From: an uncultured archaeon
Lineage (GTDB): Archaea; Micrarchaeota; Micrarchaeia; Micrarchaeales; CABMGC01
DNA: 38,374 nt
Reading direction: 5' to 3'
Assembly: GCA_963787445.1 (NCBI GenBank)
Contig: CAWBCT010000014.1
Span: 1 to 38,374, forward strand
The position numbers were made by a program, and so were the translations under genes. Positions 26,668 to 38,374 of this stretch are shown here, in pieces (position 1 is the first letter of the stretch; each line of letters begins with the position of its first letter). The notes beneath the pieces are model-generated. The model was not told the DNA's origin, ran no database searches, and saw nothing but the letters and a program-made list of their open reading frames with translations.

Positions 26668-28461
26668 ATGGGAGCGATAAAAAGAATTTCAGGACCACTG
26701 GTAATAGCGAAGGAGATGCTTGGAAGCAACATGTACGACGTAGTGCACGTTGGGAAGTCCAAGCTGGTAGGGGAGATAATCCAGCTGCGCAAGAGCGACG
26801 CAGTCATCCAGGTTTATGAGGATACAACTGGACTCAAGCCGGGAGAGCCAGTCGAAAGTCACAGGTTCGCAGCTTTCAGTGGAACTCGGACCAGGCTTAC
26901 TTGGAGGAATCTACGACGGAATCCAGAGGCCACTTTCAGTGATAGAGAAGAAGAGCGGGAGCTTCATCGGAAAGGGAATCACGGCAGACGCGCTGGACAG
27001 GAAGAAAAAGTGGAAGTTCAGTGCGACGCTGAAGAAGGGCGCGCACGTGGAAGAGGGAACGATACTCGGACACGTTCAGGAGACGGAGATCACAAAACAC
27101 TACATCATGGTGCCGAAGGGCGTTGAAGGAAAGCTCACAATGATAAAGAGCGGCAACTTCACGGTCGACGACGTTGTGGCAAAGGTAGACAGCAAGAAGA
27201 AGTCGGTCAACATCACCATGGCGCAGAAGAGATCGGTTCGAGTTTCAGGAAAGTTCAAGAACAAGTTCGGAACAAACGAGCCGCTCATGACGGGAATGCG
27301 CGTAATCGACACGCTCTTCCCAGTCGCGAAGGGCGGAACAGCAGCAATTCCAGGGCCGTTCGGCGCAGGCAAAACCGTGGCTCAGCAGTCATTGGCAAAG
27401 TACTCGGACAGCGACATCGTAGTCTACATCGGATGCGGAGAGCGAGGAAACGAGATGACGGAAATTCTCACGGAGTTCCCTCACCTGAAGGACCCGAAGA
27501 CAGGAAAGCCGCTTATGGAACGAACCGTGCTGATCGCAAACACGAGCAACATGCCGGTAGCAGCAAGAGAGGCAAGCATCTACACAGGAGTCACGATCGC
27601 AGAGTACTACAGGGACATGGGCTACAACGTGGCGGTCATGGCAGACTCAACATCCAGATGGGCAGAGGCCATGAGGGAAATCTCGGCAAGGCTTGAAGAG
27701 ATGCCTGGAGAGGAAGGATATCCGGCTTACCTTTCAAAGAGGATTGCGGAGTACTACGAAAGGGGCGGAAAGGTGGAGAGCCTGAATGGCTCGCACGGCT
27801 CCATAACATTGGTAGGGGCGGTATCTCCTGCAGGAGGAGACATTTCAGAGCCGGTTTCGCAGGGTACGCTTAGAGTGGTAAAGACCTACTGGGCGCTAGA
27901 CGCAGGGCTTGCGAACTCCAGGCACTTCCCGTCAATCAACTGGCTCAACAGCTACTCGCTCTACCTTGACGCGCTCGAACCGTGGTACATCAAGAACGTG
28001 GGAGAGGAGTACGTGAAGGACAAGAAGGAGGCGATGAAGCTGCTCCAGAGGGAGGCTGAACTGAAGGACATAGTCCAACTCGTAGGAGAGGACGCATTCC
28101 GGATGCAGAAAGAGTCCTTCTTACAATAGGAAGGATGCTCAGGGAGGACTTCCTGAGGCAGAGCGCCTTTGATGACACGGACGCCTACACCAGCATGAAG
28201 AAGCAGGCGGGAATGCTTGGCACGATACTTCACTTCTCAAGGGCTGCAAGCAACGCGGTCCAGAAGGGAGTGCAGCTGGACAAGGTCTCGAACGTCCCGG
28301 TAAGGGCGGAGATCTCAAGGATGAAGGGAATCTCTGAGAAGGAGTTCGAAGCGCACGAGAAGAAGCTCAAAGCGGGCATCACGAAGGCGTTCAACGACCT
28401 GATCGCGGAGGAGAGCCAGACGGCTTCCACTGCGGTGGTCGAGGCAAAGAAGAAGAGTTGA
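26668..28461 (+). CDS. atpA: A-type ATP synthase subunit A, with two apparent frameshifts (about 26857 and 28098; probably sequence errors)
   Basis: [24 protein letters not shown] (Walker A), [24 protein letters not shown] spread over three ORFs. Confidence 0.95.
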
Positions 28462-28465
28462 TCAC

Positions 28466-29902
28466 ATGGCACTAGAAATAGAGTATAAAACAATAGAAAG
28501 GGTAGCGGGACCGCTGGTGGTTGTAGGGAAGGTAGGCAACGCCTCCTACAACGAGATAGTGAAGATAAAGCTGAAGAGCGGGGAGTTCAGGTTGGGCCAG
28601 GTGCTCGACACGAGCGACACCCAGGCAATAGTACAGGTGTTCGGGCCGACGAACGGGATCAACGTGGAGAACAGCTCGGTCAGCTTCCTTGGAGACACGT
28701 TCAGCGTAAGGGTTAGCGAGAAGATGCTCGGACGAATATTCGACGGCCAGGGAAGGCCAAAGGACAAAGGACCGGCGATAGTCAGCAACGAGAAGAGGGA
28801 CATCAACGGCGCCCCAATCAACCCGGTATCGAGAGTCTACCCAAGCGACTTCATCCAGACAGGAATCTCAACCATAGACGGGCTCAACACCCTGGCAAGG
28901 GGCCAGAAGCTGCCAATCTTCTCCAGCTCCGGACTTCAGCACAACCAGCTGATGGCCCAGATCACCAGGCAGGCGAAGGTAAAGGGCAAGAACGAGTCGT
29001 TCGCAGTGGTGTTCGCAGGAATAGGAGTCACCTACGACGATGCAGACTACTTCATCAGGGAGTTCAGGAGGACGGGCGCAATAAAGAGGACGGTGGCTTT
29101 CATCAACCTTGCTGACGATCCAAGCATCGAGAGAATAATCACCCCTAGATTGGCTCTAACTACGGCAGAGTACCTTGCCTACGAGAAGGGAATGCACGTG
29201 CTGGTCATCCTAAACGACATGACCAACTATGCAGAGGCCCTGAGAGAGCTCGCAAGCGCAAGGGAGGAAGTTCCTGGAAGAAGAGGATACCCCGGATACA
29301 TGTACACCGACTTCGCAAGCATCTACGAGAGGGCGGGAATCATCAAGGGCAAGAAAGGCAGCATAACGCAGCTCAACGTGGTTACGATGCCTAGCGACGA
29401 CGTAACTCACCCGATTCCGGACCTGACAGGATACATCACAGAGGGACAGATCTTCATGAGCAGGGCGCTCAACAACAAGGGCATCTACCCGTCAGTCAAC
29501 CCATTGGGATCCCTATCCAGGCTTATGAACAACGCCATAGGTAAGGACAAGACCAGAGAGGACCACAGGGGCTTCGCAGACCAGCTGTTCGGAGCCTACG
29601 CAAGGGCGCAGGACGCAAAGAGCCTGAGCTCCATAGTAGGTGCGGAGGCCCTGAGCGAGATAGACAGGAAGTACCTCAATTTCGGAGACGCGTTTGAGGA
29701 CAGGTTCATAAGGCAGGGATTCGACGAGGACAGGAGCATAGAGAGGACCCTGGAGATAGGATGGGAACTCCTATCGATGCTTCCTGAGACCGAGCTCTCA
29801 AGAATCAAGGAGGAGTACGTGAAGAAGTACTACAAGAAGGCTGCGCCTTCCCATGAAAAGGAGCAGAAGGAAGAGGCTCCTGAGAAGAAGGCAAAGAAGT
29901 AA
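28466..29902 (+). CDS. atpB: A-type ATP synthase subunit B
   Basis: [36 protein letters not shown] motifs. Confidence 0.97.
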
Positions 29903-29914
29903 TTGGATGGATAA

Positions 29915-30538
29915 ATGGTAGAGAAGCTGAATCCGACGAGGATGAATCTGATAGAGACCAAGCGCAGGACGCGCACGGCCACTAGAGGATACGGCATCCT
30001 GAAGAGGAAGAGGGAGGCATTGGTCCTTGAGTTCCTCAAGCTGCTTAAGGAGTCTGGAAAGGGAAGGAGCAATCTCTACGATGAACTTCAGAAGGCTTAT
30101 GGTACGGTAAGGACAGCCTCATCCTACGTTGGAAACTTCGAGCTAGAGACAGCCGCACAGCAAGTTAAGGCGGCAGAGGAGATTGGAATTTCGGTCAGCA
30201 ACATCATGGGAGTAAAAATCCCAGAGACCATAAAGGGTGAGAAAGGAAATGGAATGGGACTTAACCTGCTTTCCACAAGCGTTGCGGTGGATGACATCAA
30301 TAACAGCTTCAACGATGTGATAGACACGGTTATAGACGTTGCTCAGAGGGAGCAAGGGTTGAAGAGACTTGTAATCGAGGTCGAAAAGACAAAGAGGAGA
30401 GTTAATGCTCTTGACTACATAGTTATACCCAACCTGAAGTCCCAGTCGAAATATATCTCCCAAAGACTGGAGGAACTTGACCGCGATATGTTCTCCGCTT
30501 TGAAGCACGTAAAGAAGAAGCTGGATAAGGGATCTTGA
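29915..30538 (+). CDS. atpD: A-type ATP synthase subunit D
   Basis: PTRMNL, LKRKREAL, NIMGVKIP, KTKRRVNAL motifs. Confidence 0.96.
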   Translation: MVEKLNPTRMNLIETKRRTRTATRGYGILKRKREALVLEFLKLLKESGKGRSNLYDELQKAYGTVRTASSYVGNFELETAAQQVKAAEEIGISVSNIMGVKIPETIKGEKGNGMGLNLLSTSVAVDDINNSFNDVIDTVIDVAQREQGLKRLVIEVEKTKRRVNALDYIVIPNLKSQSKYISQRLEELDRDMFSALKHVKKKLDKGS

Positions 30539-30548
30539 AGGCCATCCT

Positions 30549-31172
30549 ATGTTAATAATTTTTGTTAGGCATGGAGAAAGCGAACTGAATAAAAAAGGGA
30601 AACACCAGTTTTCAGATACCAAATTGTCAAAAGTTGGAATTAAACAGGCAGAATTAGTATCAAAGCGCCTTTTTGGAATAAAGGCAGATTTAATAATTTC
30701 AAGCAAATACCAGAGGGCAAAGCAAACTGCCCAGATAATAAATCGGAGACTAAAGAAGAAGGTTGTTTATACGGATTTATTTATTGAAAAGAAAGGTCCC
30801 ACAGAGATAATAGGGCATCAACACGGCGGACCTGAAGAGATCAAATACCTATTAGAACGTGAAAAACATCTGAATGATCCAAAATGGCATTACTCTGACG
30901 AAGAAAATTTTTTCGATGTGAAGAAAAGGGCGCGCAAGGCCATCAACTACTTGTTGAAAACAGGGAAAAAATCAGTGATTGTGGTCAGTCATGGAACATT
31001 CATGAGAACATTGATGGCTGTAGGAATTTTTGGGGATGAGATATCCATAAAGGATTTGAAGAAGTTTGTCAGGGCGTACCCTATAGAAAATACTGCCATC
31101 ACCGAATTTGAAATAAGTAAAGATGAAGGTTTGAAAGTGTTAACATTTAATGACTTTTTACACTTGAAGTAA
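30549..31172 (+). CDS. Histidine phosphatase family protein
   Basis: FVRHGES, SSKYQRAKQTA, VVSHG, NTAIT, NDFLHL motifs. Confidence 0.92.
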   Translation: MLIIFVRHGESELNKKGKHQFSDTKLSKVGIKQAELVSKRLFGIKADLIISSKYQRAKQTAQIINRRLKKKVVYTDLFIEKKGPTEIIGHQHGGPEEIKYLLEREKHLNDPKWHYSDEENFFDVKKRARKAINYLLKTGKKSVIVVSHGTFMRTLMAVGIFGDEISIKDLKKFVRAYPIENTAITEFEISKDEGLKVLTFNDFLHLK

Positions 31173-31233: not shown

Positions 31234-31304
31234 GGAGGTATTGTCTAATGGTAGGACGTCACCCTTACACGGTGAAGGCCTGGGTTCGATTCCCTGTACC
31301 TCCA
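31234..31304 (+). tRNA. tRNA-Val(TAC)
   Basis: Acceptor GGAGGTA/TACCTCC, anticodon arm TCACC-CTTACAC-GGTGA, T loop TTCGATT (one T-T mismatch in T stem). Confidence 0.88.
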
Positions 31305-32483: not shown

Positions 32484-33317
32484 CTAAGAAAACGCTTTCT
32501 CAATCTGTGAGTAAAGCTCGTTTTTATCTGTGTAAATATACGTCTGCGTCGTCCCTATCTCACTGTGCCTTGCAAATTTGCTCGTCAGAACAACATTTCC
32601 ATTAGTCGCCCTGGCGAAGTGAGTTATTGCATAATGGCGTAGACTGTGAGTAGTAAGCCTATGTAAACGTCTCACACGCCTTCCTTGAACTGATTCCTCA
32701 CTTGTATCATAGACCTTGTCGAATCCGCATCTTGATAGGTAGTACCTAAAGCGATTCCGTGCATAATTCACGTCTATGTATAGCCTCTTGCTATGGTGAC
32801 TTTTTACAGGATCAGTATAGAATAGATAGCCTTGGGCTTTATTTATTTGTTCAGTGTTGACCCTCATGTATTCCTGTAGCCTTAGGAGCAGTCCGGAGGG
32901 TATCCTTAACGTATTCATGGTTCTGGCCTTCTCAGTCTTAATTAGAAGCTCCCTTTTCTCAAAGCTTATGTCAGTCATATTGACCTTTATCGCCTCGCCT
33001 ATCCTAAGTCCTAGCTGACCCTGGAACTCGAAAAGCAGGCGGAACTTCTCCTCTGTTATGGAGTTCAAGAATACGACAAGCTCTTCCTCCTCAAAGCCCT
33101 TGTTTATTGAGCCGTAGCGTGGATTCTTAAGTTTGCCTGCGAATCTCTTGGCAAAATGCTTTCCTATTACCTTCTGCAAGCTCTCTATCTTATGTTTTGA
33201 TAGATAGGGCAAAAGTTCGTCTACTTCTTTTTTTAAGCGTTCAAGCTCCTTCTTGCTGGCAAATTTATCAAATGGGGTCTGTTTTCCCTGTTGCAAAAGT
33301 TGTTGTGTTTGTTGCAT
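32484..33317 (-). CDS. Tyrosine recombinase/integrase
   Basis: GLRIGEA (R), KTEKA (K), HSLRH, ARHSEIGTTQTY (H, Y). Confidence 0.93.
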   Translation of the reverse strand: MQQTQQLLQQGKQTPFDKFASKKELERLKKEVDELLPYLSKHKIESLQKVIGKHFAKRFAGKLKNPRYGSINKGFEEEELVVFLNSITEEKFRLLFEFQGQLGLRIGEAIKVNMTDISFEKRELLIKTEKARTMNTLRIPSGLLLRLQEYMRVNTEQINKAQGYLFYTDPVKSHHSKRLYIDVNYARNRFRYYLSRCGFDKVYDTSEESVQGRRVRRLHRLTTHSLRHYAITHFARATNGNVVLTSKFARHSEIGTTQTYIYTDKNELYSQIEKAFS

Positions 33318-33448: not shown

Positions 33449-33670
33449 ATGGTGGAAACAATAGGGACTTATGAAATAAGAGTAAGTTCAACAACCTACA
33501 AAAAGAAATTGAAGACAGAGATTAGAAAGTATGAATATGGAAGCATTAGTATAAAGAATCCTGAATTAGCAGGATACATAGGCCAAACTGTAATTGTTAA
33601 AATTCAAAAATCCATGAAAGATGATAAAAAGATTAGGGTTTATGGTAAGGCTTTAGATAAAATTACATAG
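33449..33670 (+). CDS. Small basic protein, possible AbrB/DUF2080-like DNA binder
   Basis: YGSISIKNPELAGYIGQTVIVKI beta-rich pattern; divergent from integrase. Confidence 0.5.
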   Translation: MVETIGTYEIRVSSTTYKKKLKTEIRKYEYGSISIKNPELAGYIGQTVIVKIQKSMKDDKKIRVYGKALDKIT

Positions 33671-33678
33671 TGCTATTT

Positions 33679-33981
33679 ATGGACAAAGAACATGTTAAAA
33701 TAGAGATAACAAAGCTTATTGATAAATATAACCGAGAAAAAGACAAAAAGTATAATGAAGAAGCCACAAAAAACGATTTTATATTGCCGCTATTTAGGAT
33801 ATTGGGTTGGAATGTAGAAGATTCTAATGAAGTCTCAAAAGAAGAGAATATATCGGGTAAAAGAGTCGATTATGGATTTAGGATAGATGGTATACCAAAA
33901 TTCTTTTTGGAGGCTAAAAGTCTAGATGAAGGTCATAGACCTCATACACAGCAGAGGGAACTATGCTTTTGTGCCGAGTGA
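33679..33981 (+). pseudogene. Truncated restriction endonuclease N-terminal domain (HsdR_N / type IIG-like)
   Basis: NEEATKNDFILPLFRILGW ... RVDYGF ... FLEAK; similarity stops abruptly near 33930. Confidence 0.8.
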
Positions 33982-34231
33982 GAAAGACAGCTTTGATGTT
34001 GGGGAGATACAACCAGACAAGAAGATTAAGGGTTGGTGGGATTACAAAGCGCTGCGAATTTATGAGATACAGACGGATGCGGACAAGGCGCATTTAGATA
34101 GATCCGTTGAAAAGGCAAGAAGGTTCAAGGCAGCACTTACAATAGTCACGAATAACTCAAAGGTAGAGGAGGAGATAATCAAACATGTAAATGGGAAGTT
34201 TGACTGCCTAAATATAGGAAAGGAAAACTAA
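33926..34231 (+). pseudogene. Probable C-terminal fragment of another gene, PD-(D/E)xK-like
   Basis: SFDVGEI ... IYEIQT; begins at the point where the HsdR_N similarity ends. Confidence 0.45.
34171..34231 (+). repeat. Left copy of a 61-bp imperfect direct repeat flanking the DGR
   Basis: 50/61 identical to 36574-36634; encodes EIIKHVNGKFDCLNIGKEN-stop. Confidence 0.85.
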
Positions 34232-34298: not shown

Positions 34299-35400
34299 TT
34301 AAGGCTTGTTCGCACGCTCCTCTTTGAATAAGCAGTTGAACCTCTCAAGAACTCTGTTTCTAAGGTTATAGGTGTTGGCAAACTCGGCGTAGGCGAACCA
34401 TCCTTCAAGACTTTTTGCCGCATCTTGCAAAGCGATCTCTCCATAATCATATTTCTTCTTTAGCCTATCCATTCGTTTCCATATCCTTCTAGCGTTGCTC
34501 TTCTTAAGAAGCTTGTAATTACGAAAAACTCTGAAACCAAGCAGAGTAACTCCTTTTTCGAGTAGTATAATCCTTGATTTTTCGGGATGCAACTCTACCT
34601 TAAGGTTGGATTTCAAAAAGTTGTCGATTTTGCTTTTCCAATTTTCTATGGTTTTTCTATCTTTATGCAAGATTAAGAAATCATCCACATACCTGATGTA
34701 ATACTTCACTTTCAGCTCGTGTTTCACGAATTGGTCAAGCTCGTTAAGATAAACGTTTGCCAAAAATTGAGAAGTCAGGTTGCCGATTGGCATTCCTCTG
34801 CCCACAACATCTGTCTTGTGATTTCCGAGTATAACTTCCATAAGCCAAATGACATCTTTGTCTTTTATCCGCCGCTTTATTATGCTAATCAGAACTTCAT
34901 GATCAACTGTATCAAAATAATGTCGAATGTCTGCCTTTAACGCATATCCAGTGATGTTTGGCCTATCAAAAAGTTTACGTTGCCCCCCCCCCCACTGAAA
35001 TCTCGCGAGGCGGGCATATTTTTCTCACAAACTTCTCAAATCTTCTTATGGCTATGTGGGTTCCCTTCCTTTTCTGGTTTGCGAAGGAATCGTATATGAA
35101 ATGTCTTTCGAAGATGGGTGCTATGACATTACATAAAGCATGGTGAACTACTCTGTCTCTGAAGTGCGATGCACTTATCTTTCTAGTCTTAGGGTCTTTT
35201 ATTATAAAAGTAGTTAGAGGACTCGGCGCGTATGTAAAAGTTCTTAACTCGTCTTGTAGTTTCATTAGGTTGTTCTCTAAATCTTCCTCAAACTCGATAA
35301 CATAATCCTTAAGTGTTTTGCCCTTTCTTGCTTTTCTCCAAGCAAGTTGCAGATTCTCGTACGAATAGATTGTATTGTACAAGTTCGTATAGGTTATCAA
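34299..35400 (-). CDS. DGR reverse transcriptase, frameshifted at a G11 tract (34983-34993)
   Basis: TYTNLY..ENL..AW.KARKGK, KTRKI..FRDRVVHHA, KGTH, LKADIRHYFDTVDH, GMPIGNLTSQFLAN, YIRYVDDF, LGF; TTG start after AGGT. Confidence 0.93.
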
Positions 35401-35436
35401 GAGATTACCTTGTATATGCTTAGGTTGCAAGCAAGA

Positions 35437-35538
35437 ACCATTGGAGCAACATTGGATGGATCGTTGTTCGCGTTGAGGTTGAACCGCCTCTCGTTGTTCC
35501 GCGCGTTGTTGTCCTCGTACACGTTGAGCGACAACGGC
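35437..35538 (-). repeat. DGR template repeat (TR)
   Basis: 102 bp, 9 AAC plus 1 AAT codons in the target frame; differs from VR only at adenines. Confidence 0.96.
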
Positions 35539-35778
35539 ACAATGTTAACCCGTCTACTAAACGCCACTTTCGTGGCTGCACCGCGGCTTTACGGTTTCGG
35601 TTTCCACGTACTCTGTATCGCCGTTGAATTTCATGTCCAGCATGTCTTAAGACTACTGGCACTGTAGACGGATGTGTGGTTCCTAGGCTTGCACCCGTGA
35701 ACGTGGGTTAGTCGTCCACGGTCCGGCAGGCATATCCACTGGATTGCCAACCAAACCTAGGCAAAGAGAATTAGACAT
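35539..35778 (-). ncRNA. Putative structured 5' part of the DGR RNA
   Basis: Nested inverted repeats and a GAAA-tetraloop hairpin; no convincing ORF. Confidence 0.5.
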
Positions 35779-36426
35779 TCACTCTTTTATCCTTAGCGCA
35801 TCGACTAGCTTCCTAGTTATGGAAAAGTTTCCCGGGCCGAACAACACGCCTTCCGCTGCCTTAAGCTCCTCTGTAGAGCCACGCTTAAGCTCCATGAGTG
35901 CTTCGGCAGAAATCCCCGTAATCGTAACACTTTCAGACGTTGTTGAAGCTACTGCAATTTCCGGCGCGGCCCCTTCGGGGACCTTCCTAACCCCTACCAC
36001 CACCGGAGCAACAACGGACGGACCGTCGTCCGCGACGAGGTAGAACCGCCTCTCGTCGTTCCGCGCGCCGTCGTCCTCGTACACGTCGAGCGACAACGGC
36101 TGTGTTCCTTTATAAAGATAAACTGTCTTCTCGATCTCGCCCTTGCCCTCCTTGAGGTTGCCCTTTTCATCGAATGTATGATAGCCGCCCTCTTCCAAGC
36201 ACTTTCCGGCCAGATAGAACCACTTTCCCTTTAGTTGCTGTTTAAGCTCAGGGTTCTGGTCGACTATAACAAGCACTTCCTGTTTGGTGAACGGGCGCAG
36301 ACCGTTGTCCTCCAAGATTCGCATTGATTTGGAGTGGTCAGCCTTTACGTTTGCGATAAAGACAGGTATTGTTGATGTCTTTACCTCTTTGAAAGTTGTC
36401 TGTGTCCTTTGTAGAGTGGCAGTCAT
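35779..36426 (-). CDS. DGR target (variable) protein
   Basis: Contains the VR in frame at about residues 110-143. Confidence 0.92.
   Translation of the reverse strand: MTATLQRTQTTFKEVKTSTIPVFIANVKADHSKSMRILEDNGLRPFTKQEVLVIVDQNPELKQQLKGKWFYLAGKCLEEGGYHTFDEKGNLKEGKGEIEKTVYLYKGTQPLSLDVYEDDGARNDERRFYLVADDGPSVVAPVVVGVRKVPEGAAPEIAVASTTSESVTITGISAEALMELKRGSTEELKAAEGVLFGPGNFSITRKLVDALRIKE
35968..35983 (-). promoter_or_regulatory. Candidate cis-acting DGR hairpin downstream of VR
   Basis: GG-T-CCCC-GAA-GGGG-CC, 15 nt 3' of VR; short stem. Confidence 0.45.
35999..36100 (-). repeat. DGR variable repeat (VR)
   Basis: 86/102 identical to TR, ungapped; all 16 mismatches at TR adenines. Confidence 0.96.
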
Positions 36427-36573
36427 TTTATCACTGTGATTTATTATGATTTTTCACCTATAAATAGCTTACTAGAAGAGTTGTCGTCGTAAGACACTCT
36501 GTCCTTTAAGCTCATCTCTATCGCCTTCGCTTCACTCAGACCCATGGGGACACGCACTACAGGCTTTAAAGGC

Positions 36574-36634
36574 GGAGATAATCAAGTATGCAAATGGAAA
36601 GTTTGATTGTATAAACATAACTAAGGAAAACTAA
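36574..36634 (+). repeat. Right copy of the 61-bp imperfect direct repeat flanking the DGR
   Basis: Encodes EIIKYANGKFDCINITKEN-stop with no upstream ORF. Confidence 0.85.
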
Positions 36635-36680: not shown

Positions 36681-37832
36681 TCAAGTTGTGCTTATACCCA
36701 TCTCTTTTAATGCATTTTCATACTCTGCTGCTTTTGTTTTCAATAGGGTAGAATATTCTAAGGCTTTGGGTGCATCAAAGCTCTCTTGAAATATCTTTGT
36801 TATGTCACCAACAGAACGAACAGTGTAATCTATAAAACTGTTAATTTTTAGTTCATGTTTCAACTTGGCTTCTAGCTTATTGAGCTTTCTTAGATCATCC
36901 TTTGGTATCTCTGCAAAGAACAGTTGGAAAGACGACTCAAATATGAATTTCTTTACTTCTATCTTCTTCCCCTCTTCTATTTCCAATTTCCCTGGCTTTA
37001 AGTCAGTACCCACTAGCTTACTGAACTCAGCAGGCAGTATATTTTTGTTGATTATGCCGATGTTTCCACTACCTAACTTGGTCTTAAAGATAAGCAAATC
37101 CATGCTTAGAAACTTAGAGAAATCAGTATCTTTGTGCCTTTCATAAAGTATGCTCCCTTTGGCTTTTAACTTCTCTAATTGTGCTTTCCAGTCTGCTTCT
37201 AGCTGAACTTTAAGCTCAGTAAGCAGCCACCGTTTTAATGTGTTTGGATTCTGCAGTTTTTTAGTCAGTCTATTTGCAGTTGTTATAAAGAATGTGCTGC
37301 GTGTTCCCATCCTAACGAAGCCAGCTTCCTGTAAGAATACAGGATAAGACCTCTTGATTACATCTTTTCCAGAAGCAATTGGTGGAGGATTTGCATAGCA
37401 GTATAAAAGGTAGGCATCCATTCCTTCAAGATGTTTGACTACATCTGATTCGCTGATTAGACCACGTTCTATAAGACGTGCGACTAGATTCATCCTAATT
37501 TTTTGGCTCTCGCCCATCATGCTATTCATATTTTTTACAAGCTGTAACTGTTCGTCACTTGTTTTCTTCTGCTCCTGATTTTGTTTGCTTAAATCCCCAA
37601 CTTTTTGATTTAGCTCACCAATACTTGTTGCAGCACTTGTTACAGCTGAGCTAAATTGTTGATCTGATGCCTGTTTATCAAGGAATTGGAGGATGCCAGC
37701 TATGACTATAATCAGACCTATAATCCACAACGGAACTACTGTGGCGATAAAGGTAAGAAATGTTAATACACAACCCAATACGATTAGGAGTATGCTTACC
37801 GCGTGCTTACTGATGAAGTCTTTCGCACCCAT
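36681..37832 (-). CDS. Membrane-anchored coiled-coil protein of unknown function
   Basis: Two N-terminal TM helices, Q/E/K heptad region, ~250-aa globular C-terminus. Confidence 0.8.
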   Translation of the reverse strand: MGAKDFISKHAVSILLIVLGCVLTFLTFIATVVPLWIIGLIIVIAGILQFLDKQASDQQFSSAVTSAATSIGELNQKVGDLSKQNQEQKKTSDEQLQLVKNMNSMMGESQKIRMNLVARLIERGLISESDVVKHLEGMDAYLLYCYANPPPIASGKDVIKRSYPVFLQEAGFVRMGTRSTFFITTANRLTKKLQNPNTLKRWLLTELKVQLEADWKAQLEKLKAKGSILYERHKDTDFSKFLSMDLLIFKTKLGSGNIGIINKNILPAEFSKLVGTDLKPGKLEIEEGKKIEVKKFIFESSFQLFFAEIPKDDLRKLNKLEAKLKHELKINSFIDYTVRSVGDITKIFQESFDAPKALEYSTLLKTKAAEYENALKEMGISTT

Positions 37833-38374
37833 TCTATCTTGCCTTGATTATTTTAAGTATGGTGAAGGCAGCAAAGTTTCTTTTTCTCTCCTCCATGACT
37901 ATATTTTATCGTAAGTTATTATGTCTTCCTTTAAACCTGAACCTGCACTCTTGCTTCGGTCGGACTCGGGAATGCTCCCTACGACTTGACTATTAGATAA
38001 CGATCAATGCGGAGTACTAAGGAATCAGTAAGAATATTGACTAAAACTATGGAAAACAGAAACATAAAGCCGACAAATATAAAACCAAACAAAGAGACTA
38101 CTTGATACCCTAAACCCCTTCAATATTATCGACGTAGGAACTGAAAAGAATAACAAAAACACAAAGAAGACAACAAAGAAACACCAACAACATATTAGAA
38201 TAAGGTACGAACCCCCTCCCACTTGCTGCGTACCTTGTCAGGCTTTCCCCGAGGGAAGTAGGAAGGTACGAAGGGGGTAGTAGAAGGGAATAGGTTCGTA
38301 CCATCCGGCACGAAAAAGCATTAAAATTGCAGAATATGGATTAAAATTGCAAAACCGATTAAAAATGCAAAGCC

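Follow-up and report, generated by a model that had tools for sequence, protein, structure and literature searches.

Diversity-generating retroelements (DGRs) are, to our knowledge, the only natural systems of targeted protein hypermutation in prokaryotes. In the DGR of Bordetella phage BPP-1 (mtd-avd-TR-Sp-brt), a template repeat (TR) with AAC-rich codons is copied into a variable repeat (VR) with mutagenesis confined to adenines, the reverse transcriptase (RT) carries the motifs IGxLTSQ and YxDD, and the diversified target protein has a C-type-lectin fold. The available excerpts on this phage system further describe a GC-rich element and a hairpin after the VR, as well as a template RNA that is bracketed by upstream and downstream partner segments. 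DGRs are also described from Nanoarchaeota and other DPANN archaea with small genomes (in the available portions of PMC4372165 and PMC5758913), and the available portion of the first of these (Paul et al. 2015, PMC4372165) gives two hallmarks of the archaeal elements: a difference at the 3' end of the repeats between the initiation of mutagenic homing site (IMH, GG) and its counterpart in the template (IMH*, AA), and, within the target gene, a hairpin whose triloop reads GRA. These features, some of them as candidates, recur in a DGR of an uncultured archaeon of the Micrarchaeota, at positions 34299-36426 of a 38,374-nt stretch of DNA, here called the window, which is the whole of contig C14 in a 19-contig, 1.05-Mb genome (G000; 82% complete, 5.4% contamination). 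The locus is a complete, Avd-less DGR of the DPANN/Micrarchaeota type.

Several differences set it apart from the phage element. The 82%-complete genome yielded no Avd (PF05635), and there is no open reading frame (ORF) between the target gene and the TR; Avd is not universal among DGRs. RT-16, which is a large structured RNA, is found on the 5' side of the TR, while the available descriptions of BPP-1 place Sp/RT-10 on its 3' side. Between the end of the TR and the RT start there are 36 nt, the VR lies in the middle of the target protein and is followed by a helical tail, and the RT, out of frame as assembled, contains an insertion of about 25 aa which holds a poly-G tract. No repeat tract in a DGR RT is reported in the literature searched, which included the available portions of PMC5758913 and PMC4372165; a mention in supplementary files is possible. 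In the same portions there is likewise no mention of a frameshift in the RT, of the target family or of the RT-16 assignment. The RT, apparently gated by its repeat, is a new feature on an otherwise known DPANN-type DGR.

Simple sequence repeat (SSR) contingency loci, which underlie phase variation, are known in Campylobacter, Neisseria and Haemophilus. The micrarchaeal RT gene resembles such bacterial loci in having a long G/C homopolymer within an ORF, far above the genome background, in showing length differences between near-identical sequences (here between relatives), and in occurring as both in-frame and out-of-frame alleles. It differs from them in that the gated gene is the mutator itself, a DGR RT, rather than a surface or restriction gene, in that the host is a DPANN archaeon, and in that switching is deduced from sequences alone. 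On balance, we lean towards the view that the poly-G tract serves as a heritable, slippage-driven on/off switch of the mutator.

A DGR whose variable repeat has been rewritten between natural populations

The target gene, the TR and the gene for the RT all lie on the minus strand, as was evident from their ORF positions and as an earlier sequence-only reading of the window had stated. The alignment proposed in that reading was also reproduced. The TR (35437-35538, minus strand) and the VR (35999-36100, minus strand; target codons ~109-142) align over 102 nt without gaps, and all 16 mismatches fall on adenines of the TR, so that 16 of its 29 adenines are changed in the VR (13 A>G and 3 A>T; hypergeometric p = 3.6e-11 for all differences falling on A positions). 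Homology breaks off abruptly at either end. Read in the frame of the target, the TR contains nine AAC codons and one AAT codon, with 27 of the 29 adenines at codon positions 1 and 2, and the VR is in frame within the target ORF; the translations given earlier for both repeats were obtained again as written. A search of the whole genome assembly with the TR, which had been suggested as a way of finding remote VRs, returned only the TR and the VR themselves and no third copy. The last two mismatches, at the 3' end, are AA in the TR and GG in the VR. As this difference recurs in all relatives examined, it is probably a fixed IMH*/IMH difference rather than a product of mutagenesis, as judged by comparison between loci.

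Parts of the region were found in four public sequencing runs, as contigs rather than reads. Runs from one soil study matched the window exactly wherever they overlapped it. Run X2, a cave metagenome from another study, contains pieces without any difference from the window, such as those at 35449-35660 and 37649-38008, together with a 492-nt contig that covers 35995-36484 with 12 differences. All eight of the differences listed for this contig are at TR-adenine positions (p 2e-5), and four of these eight are sites at which the VR of the window still equals the TR. The element has therefore been active, as the earlier reading had proposed, and the VR has been rewritten between natural populations, which makes the locus a case of natural VR turnover between two environments. 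Rewriting has probably occurred within populations as well; the difference at position 36035 is carried by only two of the three X2 contigs. Divergence restricted to TR adenines was also seen in relatives whose RT gene is frameshifted. Some related loci (L009, L014 and L016) have two tandem target genes, each with a VR matched to a single TR; for the pair in L009 (1966-2565 and 2645-3121), 18 of 18 and 22 of 22 mismatches are at TR adenines.

The RT was identified from two open frames that lie one base apart in phase. The N-terminal ORF of 151 aa (34975-35430, minus strand) encodes the N-terminal extension and fingers and ends at a TAA two codons after a run of G; by homology to the motif M-x-T-Y-x-N-L-Y, the start codon is likely to be the TTG at 35400. 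The C-terminal open frame of 241 aa (34299-35024, minus strand), which is open across the G run, encodes fingers, palm and thumb, matches Pfam RVT_1 at 66.6 bits and contains the IGNLTSQ and YVDD motifs that had been noted earlier. Both halves found the same best match among solved structures, chain A of 8ub7 (an RT of 328 aa), which we take to be bRT of Bordetella phage BPP-1. Residues 14-136 of the N-terminal half align with residues 5-127 of this chain at E 3.4e-22, the next chain, a retron-type RT, giving 3.9e-5, and the C-terminal half aligns with residues 133-323 at E 1.7e-22, the next chain, a group II maturase, giving 1.4e-15. The IGNLTSQ motif stands opposite IGSLTSQ of 8ub7_A. Grouping with group II intron or retron RTs, which had been named as the outcome that would speak against a DGR, was not seen in the comparison with solved chains, among which 8ub7_A was matched far better. 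Taken with the adenine-only mismatches, these matches bear out the assignment to the DGRs. A group II intron RT was considered and rejected, the group II model being the best NCBIfam match (NCBIfam has no DGR RT model) at a score of 113.7 against a cut-off of 300.

This RT was the only one found in the genome. The closest homologues of both the RT and the target are named Candidatus Micrarchaeota, and the genome carries A-type ATP synthase genes, in keeping with the archaeal, DPANN origin first proposed. Relatives of the RT are spread across Micr-, Woese-, Nano-, Pace- and Aenigmarchaeota. A scan of viral contigs gave matches above 50% identity for only 2 of 80 loci and no sign of a viral clade.

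The target gene (35779-36426, minus strand) encodes a protein of 215 aa, for which no Pfam or NCBIfam family was found. It has 69 homologues, all of them unnamed or annotated as hypothetical and several from Micrarchaeota. Their alignment shows a conserved frame, PLSLxVxxDxxARxxxRRFxLxAxxxPxxVAPVVVGV, which is hypervariable exactly at the TR-adenine positions. An AlphaFold2 model of the target had a mean predicted local distance difference test score (pLDDT) of 79.4, with values above 85 for residues 11-150. When this model was compared by VIA-align, which is independent of Foldseek, all 50 of the top 50 matches were C-type-lectin-like domains (Z 7.2-9.6, over residues 13-150); the top Foldseek matches were C-type-lectin-like domains too, with weak E-values of 4e-3 and above. 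A comparison of the target family with the PDB by sequence returned only L31 matches at chance level (E 0.03 and weaker), which were rejected. The scaffold is thus modelled as the usual fold of DGR targets, in a minimal form that occupies residues ~13-150 and is followed by a helical C-terminal tail. The locus would in this way define a C-type-lectin target that is small, belongs to no family and is widespread among the Micrarchaeota, which are thought to depend on contact with host cells.

A poly-G tract at the junction of two RT frames

The two RT frames overlap only across a run of 11 G residues (G11; 34983-34993, minus strand, C11 on the plus strand), and a run of G10 or G13 would join them into one continuous RT. 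The motifs seen in the sequence-only reading are present; a point that it had not noted is that the assembled RT is not a single ORF, being frameshifted at the tract. Every other homopolymer of the genome is shorter than this G11; runs of G or C of lengths 5, 6, 7, 8, 9 and 11 occur 665, 99, 8, 1, 1 and 1 times, respectively.

The corresponding site was then compared across related RT loci, 80 from genomes and 80 from metagenomes, by scoring the linker between the FANQ/R-KG and KADI motifs. A total of 161 sequences were scored, and the 17 without an anchor were left out, leaving 144. A G/C run of at least 8 was present in the linker of 14 of these, and 12 of the 14 were frameshifted there (10 by +1 and 2 by +2). 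Among the remaining 130 loci, a frameshift was found in only four, L004 at (AG)8 and L087, L092 and L148 at short runs, an association of tract with frame loss that gave a Fisher p of 1.5e-12 with kin not independent of one another. Two further relatives, L261 (G11) and L262 (G10), were also shifted at the tract. Other loci were in frame despite a repeat, namely L060 with G11, L111 with G8, and L013 and L095 with (AG)10 and (AG)6. The type of tract at this same site varies with lineage and may be G, C or (AG)n. In two same-genus genomes, L264 has G10 and L265 has G8 between near-identical flanks, and in the scaffold of L006 a G9 (in frame) and a G11 flank an NN gap. Outside the tract, the shifted genes are well preserved, with no internal stop in either half of the 15 of 16 loci checked (L006 uncounted), save one stop in L086.

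A tree of the C-terminal halves of the RT (157 tips) requires at least 11 changes of state to account for the presence of the tract, which is carried by 12 of the 17 tips nearest to the window. In full-length database homologues, the linker contains GGG or more in 11 of 36 cases and PPP or ERERE in others, and several gene calls start with M-GGGQ, right at the tract. Measured against residues 127-133 of 8ub7, the linker amounts to an insertion of about 25 aa. In the model of the in-frame homologue P0012, the glycines encoded by the tract lie in a low-confidence loop, with pLDDT below 50 at residues 135-137. Different repeats at one permissive site, frame loss confined to that site, differences in length, and the existence of both ON and OFF alleles together form the pattern of a contingency locus. 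Across the clade, gating of the RT by a repeat appears well supported by these comparisons; the exact tract length in the contig of the window is predicted from its assembly only.

In the mechanism that we favour, an RNA comprising RT-16, the TR and a short 3' segment would be made, and the RT would copy the TR into cDNA with misincorporation opposite adenines. This cDNA would then replace the VR in the small protein of C-type-lectin fold, guided by the GG/AA difference of the IMH and by a hairpin with a GAA loop after the VR; the roles given here to the RNA and to the hairpin are inferred. The hypermutable poly-G would be accommodated in a flexible, insertion-tolerant loop between fingers motifs of the RT, where a change of tract length by slipped-strand mispairing would bring the RT into or out of frame. 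Cells would thereby alternate, heritably and reversibly, between a diversifying state and one in which the current VR is frozen. The G11 of the assembly would represent the OFF position of the switch, and tract length would be expected to vary in the population from which the window derives, with cells of G10 or G13 making an active RT.

A number of observations weigh against this reading. Elsewhere on the contig, two indels of one base each in short A/T runs, an extra base near 26860 (GTCGAAAGTC) and a missing base near 28100 (GCATTCCGG), break atpA, the conserved gene for subunit A of the A-type ATP synthase (26668-28466, plus strand), into three frame segments. Every piece still matches AtpA, and the breaks may be either assembly indel errors or a truly broken atpA. 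The HSDR_N gene on the same contig is frameshifted as well. In view of these frameshifts, G11 may be a miscalled G10. Furthermore, no run contig spans 34983-34993, where depth is near zero, the nearest piece starting at 34984. As to the tract itself, 10 of the 12 shifted tract-bearing loci share one direction of shift (binomial p 0.04), a bias that simple random slippage does not predict, and only 2 of the 14 tract-bearing loci are in frame as against one third expected (p 0.16, not significant). The relatives compared are not independent, some of their assemblies are of unknown read type, and the RT activity of the clade members is a prediction from their sequences.

The first of these observations raise the possibility that the RT is intact and constitutive, that G11 is an assembly or base-calling error in a tract that merely encodes a glycine-rich loop, and that the shifts of the relatives are homopolymer errors of the same kind. 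The split atpA and HSDR_N genes, the lack of a run contig across the tract and the scaffold gap of L006, which lies exactly at the tract, would all be in keeping with such an error, as would a 659-kb contig in the genome, the length of which suggests long-read assembly. However, the 12 of 14 tract-bearing loci that are out of frame lie far above the expected rate of consensus error. The (AG)n repeats at the same site are not homopolymers, yet one of them (L004) is shifted too, and the pieces from run X4 equal the window exactly wherever they overlap it. A loose end in X4 is presumably an Illumina transposase adapter. Contig names of the k141_, NODE_ and Ga... types, borne by the contigs of many of these loci and taken here to derive from short-read assemblers, were also counted against an error of assembly. 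This explanation was therefore regarded as unlikely. Were G11 nothing but an assembly error, a well-documented but ordinary DPANN DGR would remain.

The shared direction of the shifts might instead point to programmed frameshifting. The out-of-frame sequence would then be the normal genotype, and slippage during transcription, or +1 frameshifting by the ribosome on the G run, would set a low level of full-length RT, the recoding acting as a throttle on the mutator and not as a heritable switch. Both frames are open across the G run, the same +1 correction would serve 10 of the 12 shifted tract-bearing loci as well as L261, and the VRs of shifted relatives are still diverging. Set against this are +2 alleles (L086, L157 and L262) and the long-tract alleles that are already in frame (L060 and L111, above). 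The sequences flanking the tract are specific to each lineage, with no conserved stop, flank or stimulator context around the tract in the relatives compared, and variants with (AG)n or C runs would need other mechanisms. Recoding was accordingly held to be an improbable account of the tract, slightly more so than an error of assembly.

A third possibility is a dead DGR with an RT that is a pseudogene in decay; the differences between TR and VR, and between the VRs of different samples, would then be relics of earlier activity. The RT is out of frame as assembled, the related copies L264, L265 and L266 are truncated or have extra stops, and the adjoining HSDR_N gene is broken, all of which would suit a region in decay. 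The tract, however, is the sole lesion of the RT, both halves of which align end to end with intact homologues, and no damage is seen in RT-16, the TR, the IMH pair or the hairpin. Sequences from two studies that are otherwise identical differ in the VR, which also speaks against a dead element. Gene decay was considered very improbable and the least likely of the rival explanations.

If the switch reading is true, lineages would pass in turn through bursts in which their receptors diversify and phases in which a chosen variant is stably inherited. The tract would offer a simple solution, both heritable and reversible, to the question of how a cell stops mutating after gaining a useful variant. 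Stochastic evolvability would then operate at two tiers, and the locus would be a clear example of phase variation by repeats in DPANN archaea.

RT-16 and the elements around the repeats

Upstream of the TR, a full-length match to the RT-16 RNA (Rfam RF03019) was found at 35540-35701 on the minus strand, with 64.5 bits against a gathering score of 50 and covering positions 1-158 of the 158 of the model. The match adjoins an RT gene, as in the Rfam family, and is present in a single copy in the genome. It can be placed more precisely than in the paper that defined the motif, its 3' end lying against the TR at the 5' edge. RT-16 was also present in 17 of 20 relatives' loci and ended at the start of the TR in 10 of the 10 in which the TR could be located. 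The available portion of Weinberg et al. 2017 (PMC5737381) says of the motifs RT-1 to RT-19 only that they lie near RT genes and that some of these motifs may serve DGRs, and places RT-10 between TR and RT in phage BPP-1. Beyond this, RT-16 was found in the literature searched only as an entry in lists, in PMC11701678 and PMC13085918. The locus thus puts an RNA that was an orphan in Rfam into a functional setting.

The first ~45 nt of RT-16 (35662-35706) are complementary to a segment that spans the 3' end of the TR and the next 30 nt (35407-35446, minus strand). The energy of the predicted duplex was -25.0 kcal/mol, and none of 300 shuffles was as good. Relatives keep this pairing with different sequences, at most 1 of 300 shuffles being as good in 5 of 11 loci and at most 2 of 300 in 6 of 11. 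The mean energy was -25.4 kcal/mol with matched partners and -17.5 kcal/mol with mismatched ones; in 6 of 11 loci the segment's own partner ranked first. When the whole segments of 175 nt and 70 nt were used, long-range pairing was no better than in shuffles; the pairing segments were narrowed post hoc, after this uninformative first try. These energies suggest a possible structure in which RT-16 and the TR would be enclosed by a long-range helix or by kissing hairpins; it is rated a lead because the segments were chosen after a first look. The pairing recalls the duplex between upstream and downstream segments that brackets the TR in the Bordetella ribonucleoprotein, according to the available part of its description (bioRxiv 10.1101/2023.10.23.563531).

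At 35968-35983 (minus strand), 16 nt downstream of the VR, a GC-rich hairpin with a GAA triloop (GGTCCCC GAA GGGGCC) was read from the sequence, followed by GCGCCGGAAA. Comparable hairpins with a CGCGCCGAAA-like tail follow the VR in L007, L016, L017 and L085. By energy the hairpin does not stand out, the minimum free energy of its 61-nt context being no better than that of shuffles (z 0.43). Together with the GG/AA difference at the end of the repeats, it agrees with the available description of archaeal DGRs in PMC4372165, and it is put forward as a candidate target-recognition hairpin on the basis of its sequence and position.

A more general proposal would extend these findings to a clade of DPANN DGRs, in which the mutator would be a contingency locus, toggled heritably by a G, C or AG repeat that is kept in a permissive loop of the RT gene. 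The template-flanking RNA of these Avd-less DGRs would be RT-16, which a long-range helix would close around the TR. We regard the case for this proposal as evenly balanced.

Genomic setting of the cassette

The sequence-only reading had described the DGR as mobile cargo on an element integrated at a tRNA-Val gene. A tRNA-Val(TAC) gene (31234-31304, plus strand), the proposed and still candidate attachment site, adjoins the atp operon. In three same-genus genomes a tRNA-Val(TAC) lies in the same place, about 1.9 kb downstream of atpD, and it is therefore a native tRNA. A gene for a tyrosine recombinase/integrase (32484-33317, minus strand) is located 1.2 kb from it within a region of low GC content; the protein matches Pfam Phage_integrase at 50 bits (cut-off 27.1) and an NCBIfam XerA-type model below its cut-off, and has a paralogue of 46% identity on contig C17. 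The GC content falls from about 0.55 to about 0.35 at ~30400-30550, some 800 nt upstream of the tRNA gene, with a low-GC histidine-phosphatase gene in between. Run contigs bridge this transition (30265-30996), so that no obvious chimeric join is present.

None of the genes downstream of the tRNA (a 365-aa ORF, the integrase, HSDR_N, the DGR and a 383-aa membrane protein) turned up after atpD-tRNA-Val in the three same-genus genomes, where synteny is poor overall. The RT is patchy in its distribution: it occurs in 6 of 40 relatives, its best match (65%) belongs to another family, and same-genus matches are partial or broken. Horizontal acquisition of the region is therefore likely, and the integrase, the drop in GC content, the island genes not found in the three genomes and the patchy RT all stand in favour of a mobile element. 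The claim as a whole is only partly supported, with integration at the tRNA-Val still a proposal: no att repeat of the tRNA-Val or of its flanks turned up in either the window or the genome, the drop in GC content begins before the tRNA, and the low-GC region runs off the end of the contig at 38374. An attempt to locate the far junction through the genes that lie downstream of atpD in the nearest relative, G004, was abandoned, as these match a three-copy repeat of G000 and do not locate it.

Next to the RT gene lies the HSDR_N-type (PD-(D/E)xK-type) gene (33670-34231, plus strand), which is frameshifted into two ORFs, the Pfam HSDR_N match being on the ORF at 33670-33981. A repeat comparison showed that a 68-nt direct repeat flanks the DGR cassette and that its first copy (34164-34231, plus strand) is the 3' end of this gene. 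The second copy (36567-36634, plus strand), 81% identical, is a remnant of the gene end upstream of the target gene, and the 2.3-kb cassette thus sits between two copies of the end of the HSDR_N gene. An HSDR_N-like gene is also convergent to the RT in L009, and a paralogue is present on contig C13.

Just upstream of the target gene, the 383-aa protein (36681-37832, minus strand) has an N-terminal membrane segment, a weak match to DUF308 and a long helical region; no homologue of it was found in the related loci searched. The last ~350 nt of the contig contain 20-nt tandem repeats (GAAxAxGxATTAAAATTGCA) at 38312-38351 and an imperfect inverted repeat (38204-38220 / 38286-38302), which may mark the edge of a mobile element or have caused the assembly to stop. 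The three-copy repeat mentioned above is a gene of about 1.3 kb (C10:2783-4113, C18:18997-20328 and C19:7989-9319) with a homologue directly downstream of atpD in G004, the closest relative, and it is likely to be an insertion sequence. Around the atp operon, the GC content is about 0.30-0.36 in G001-G003 and about 0.55 in the window (G000), though these genomes are grouped in the same genus.

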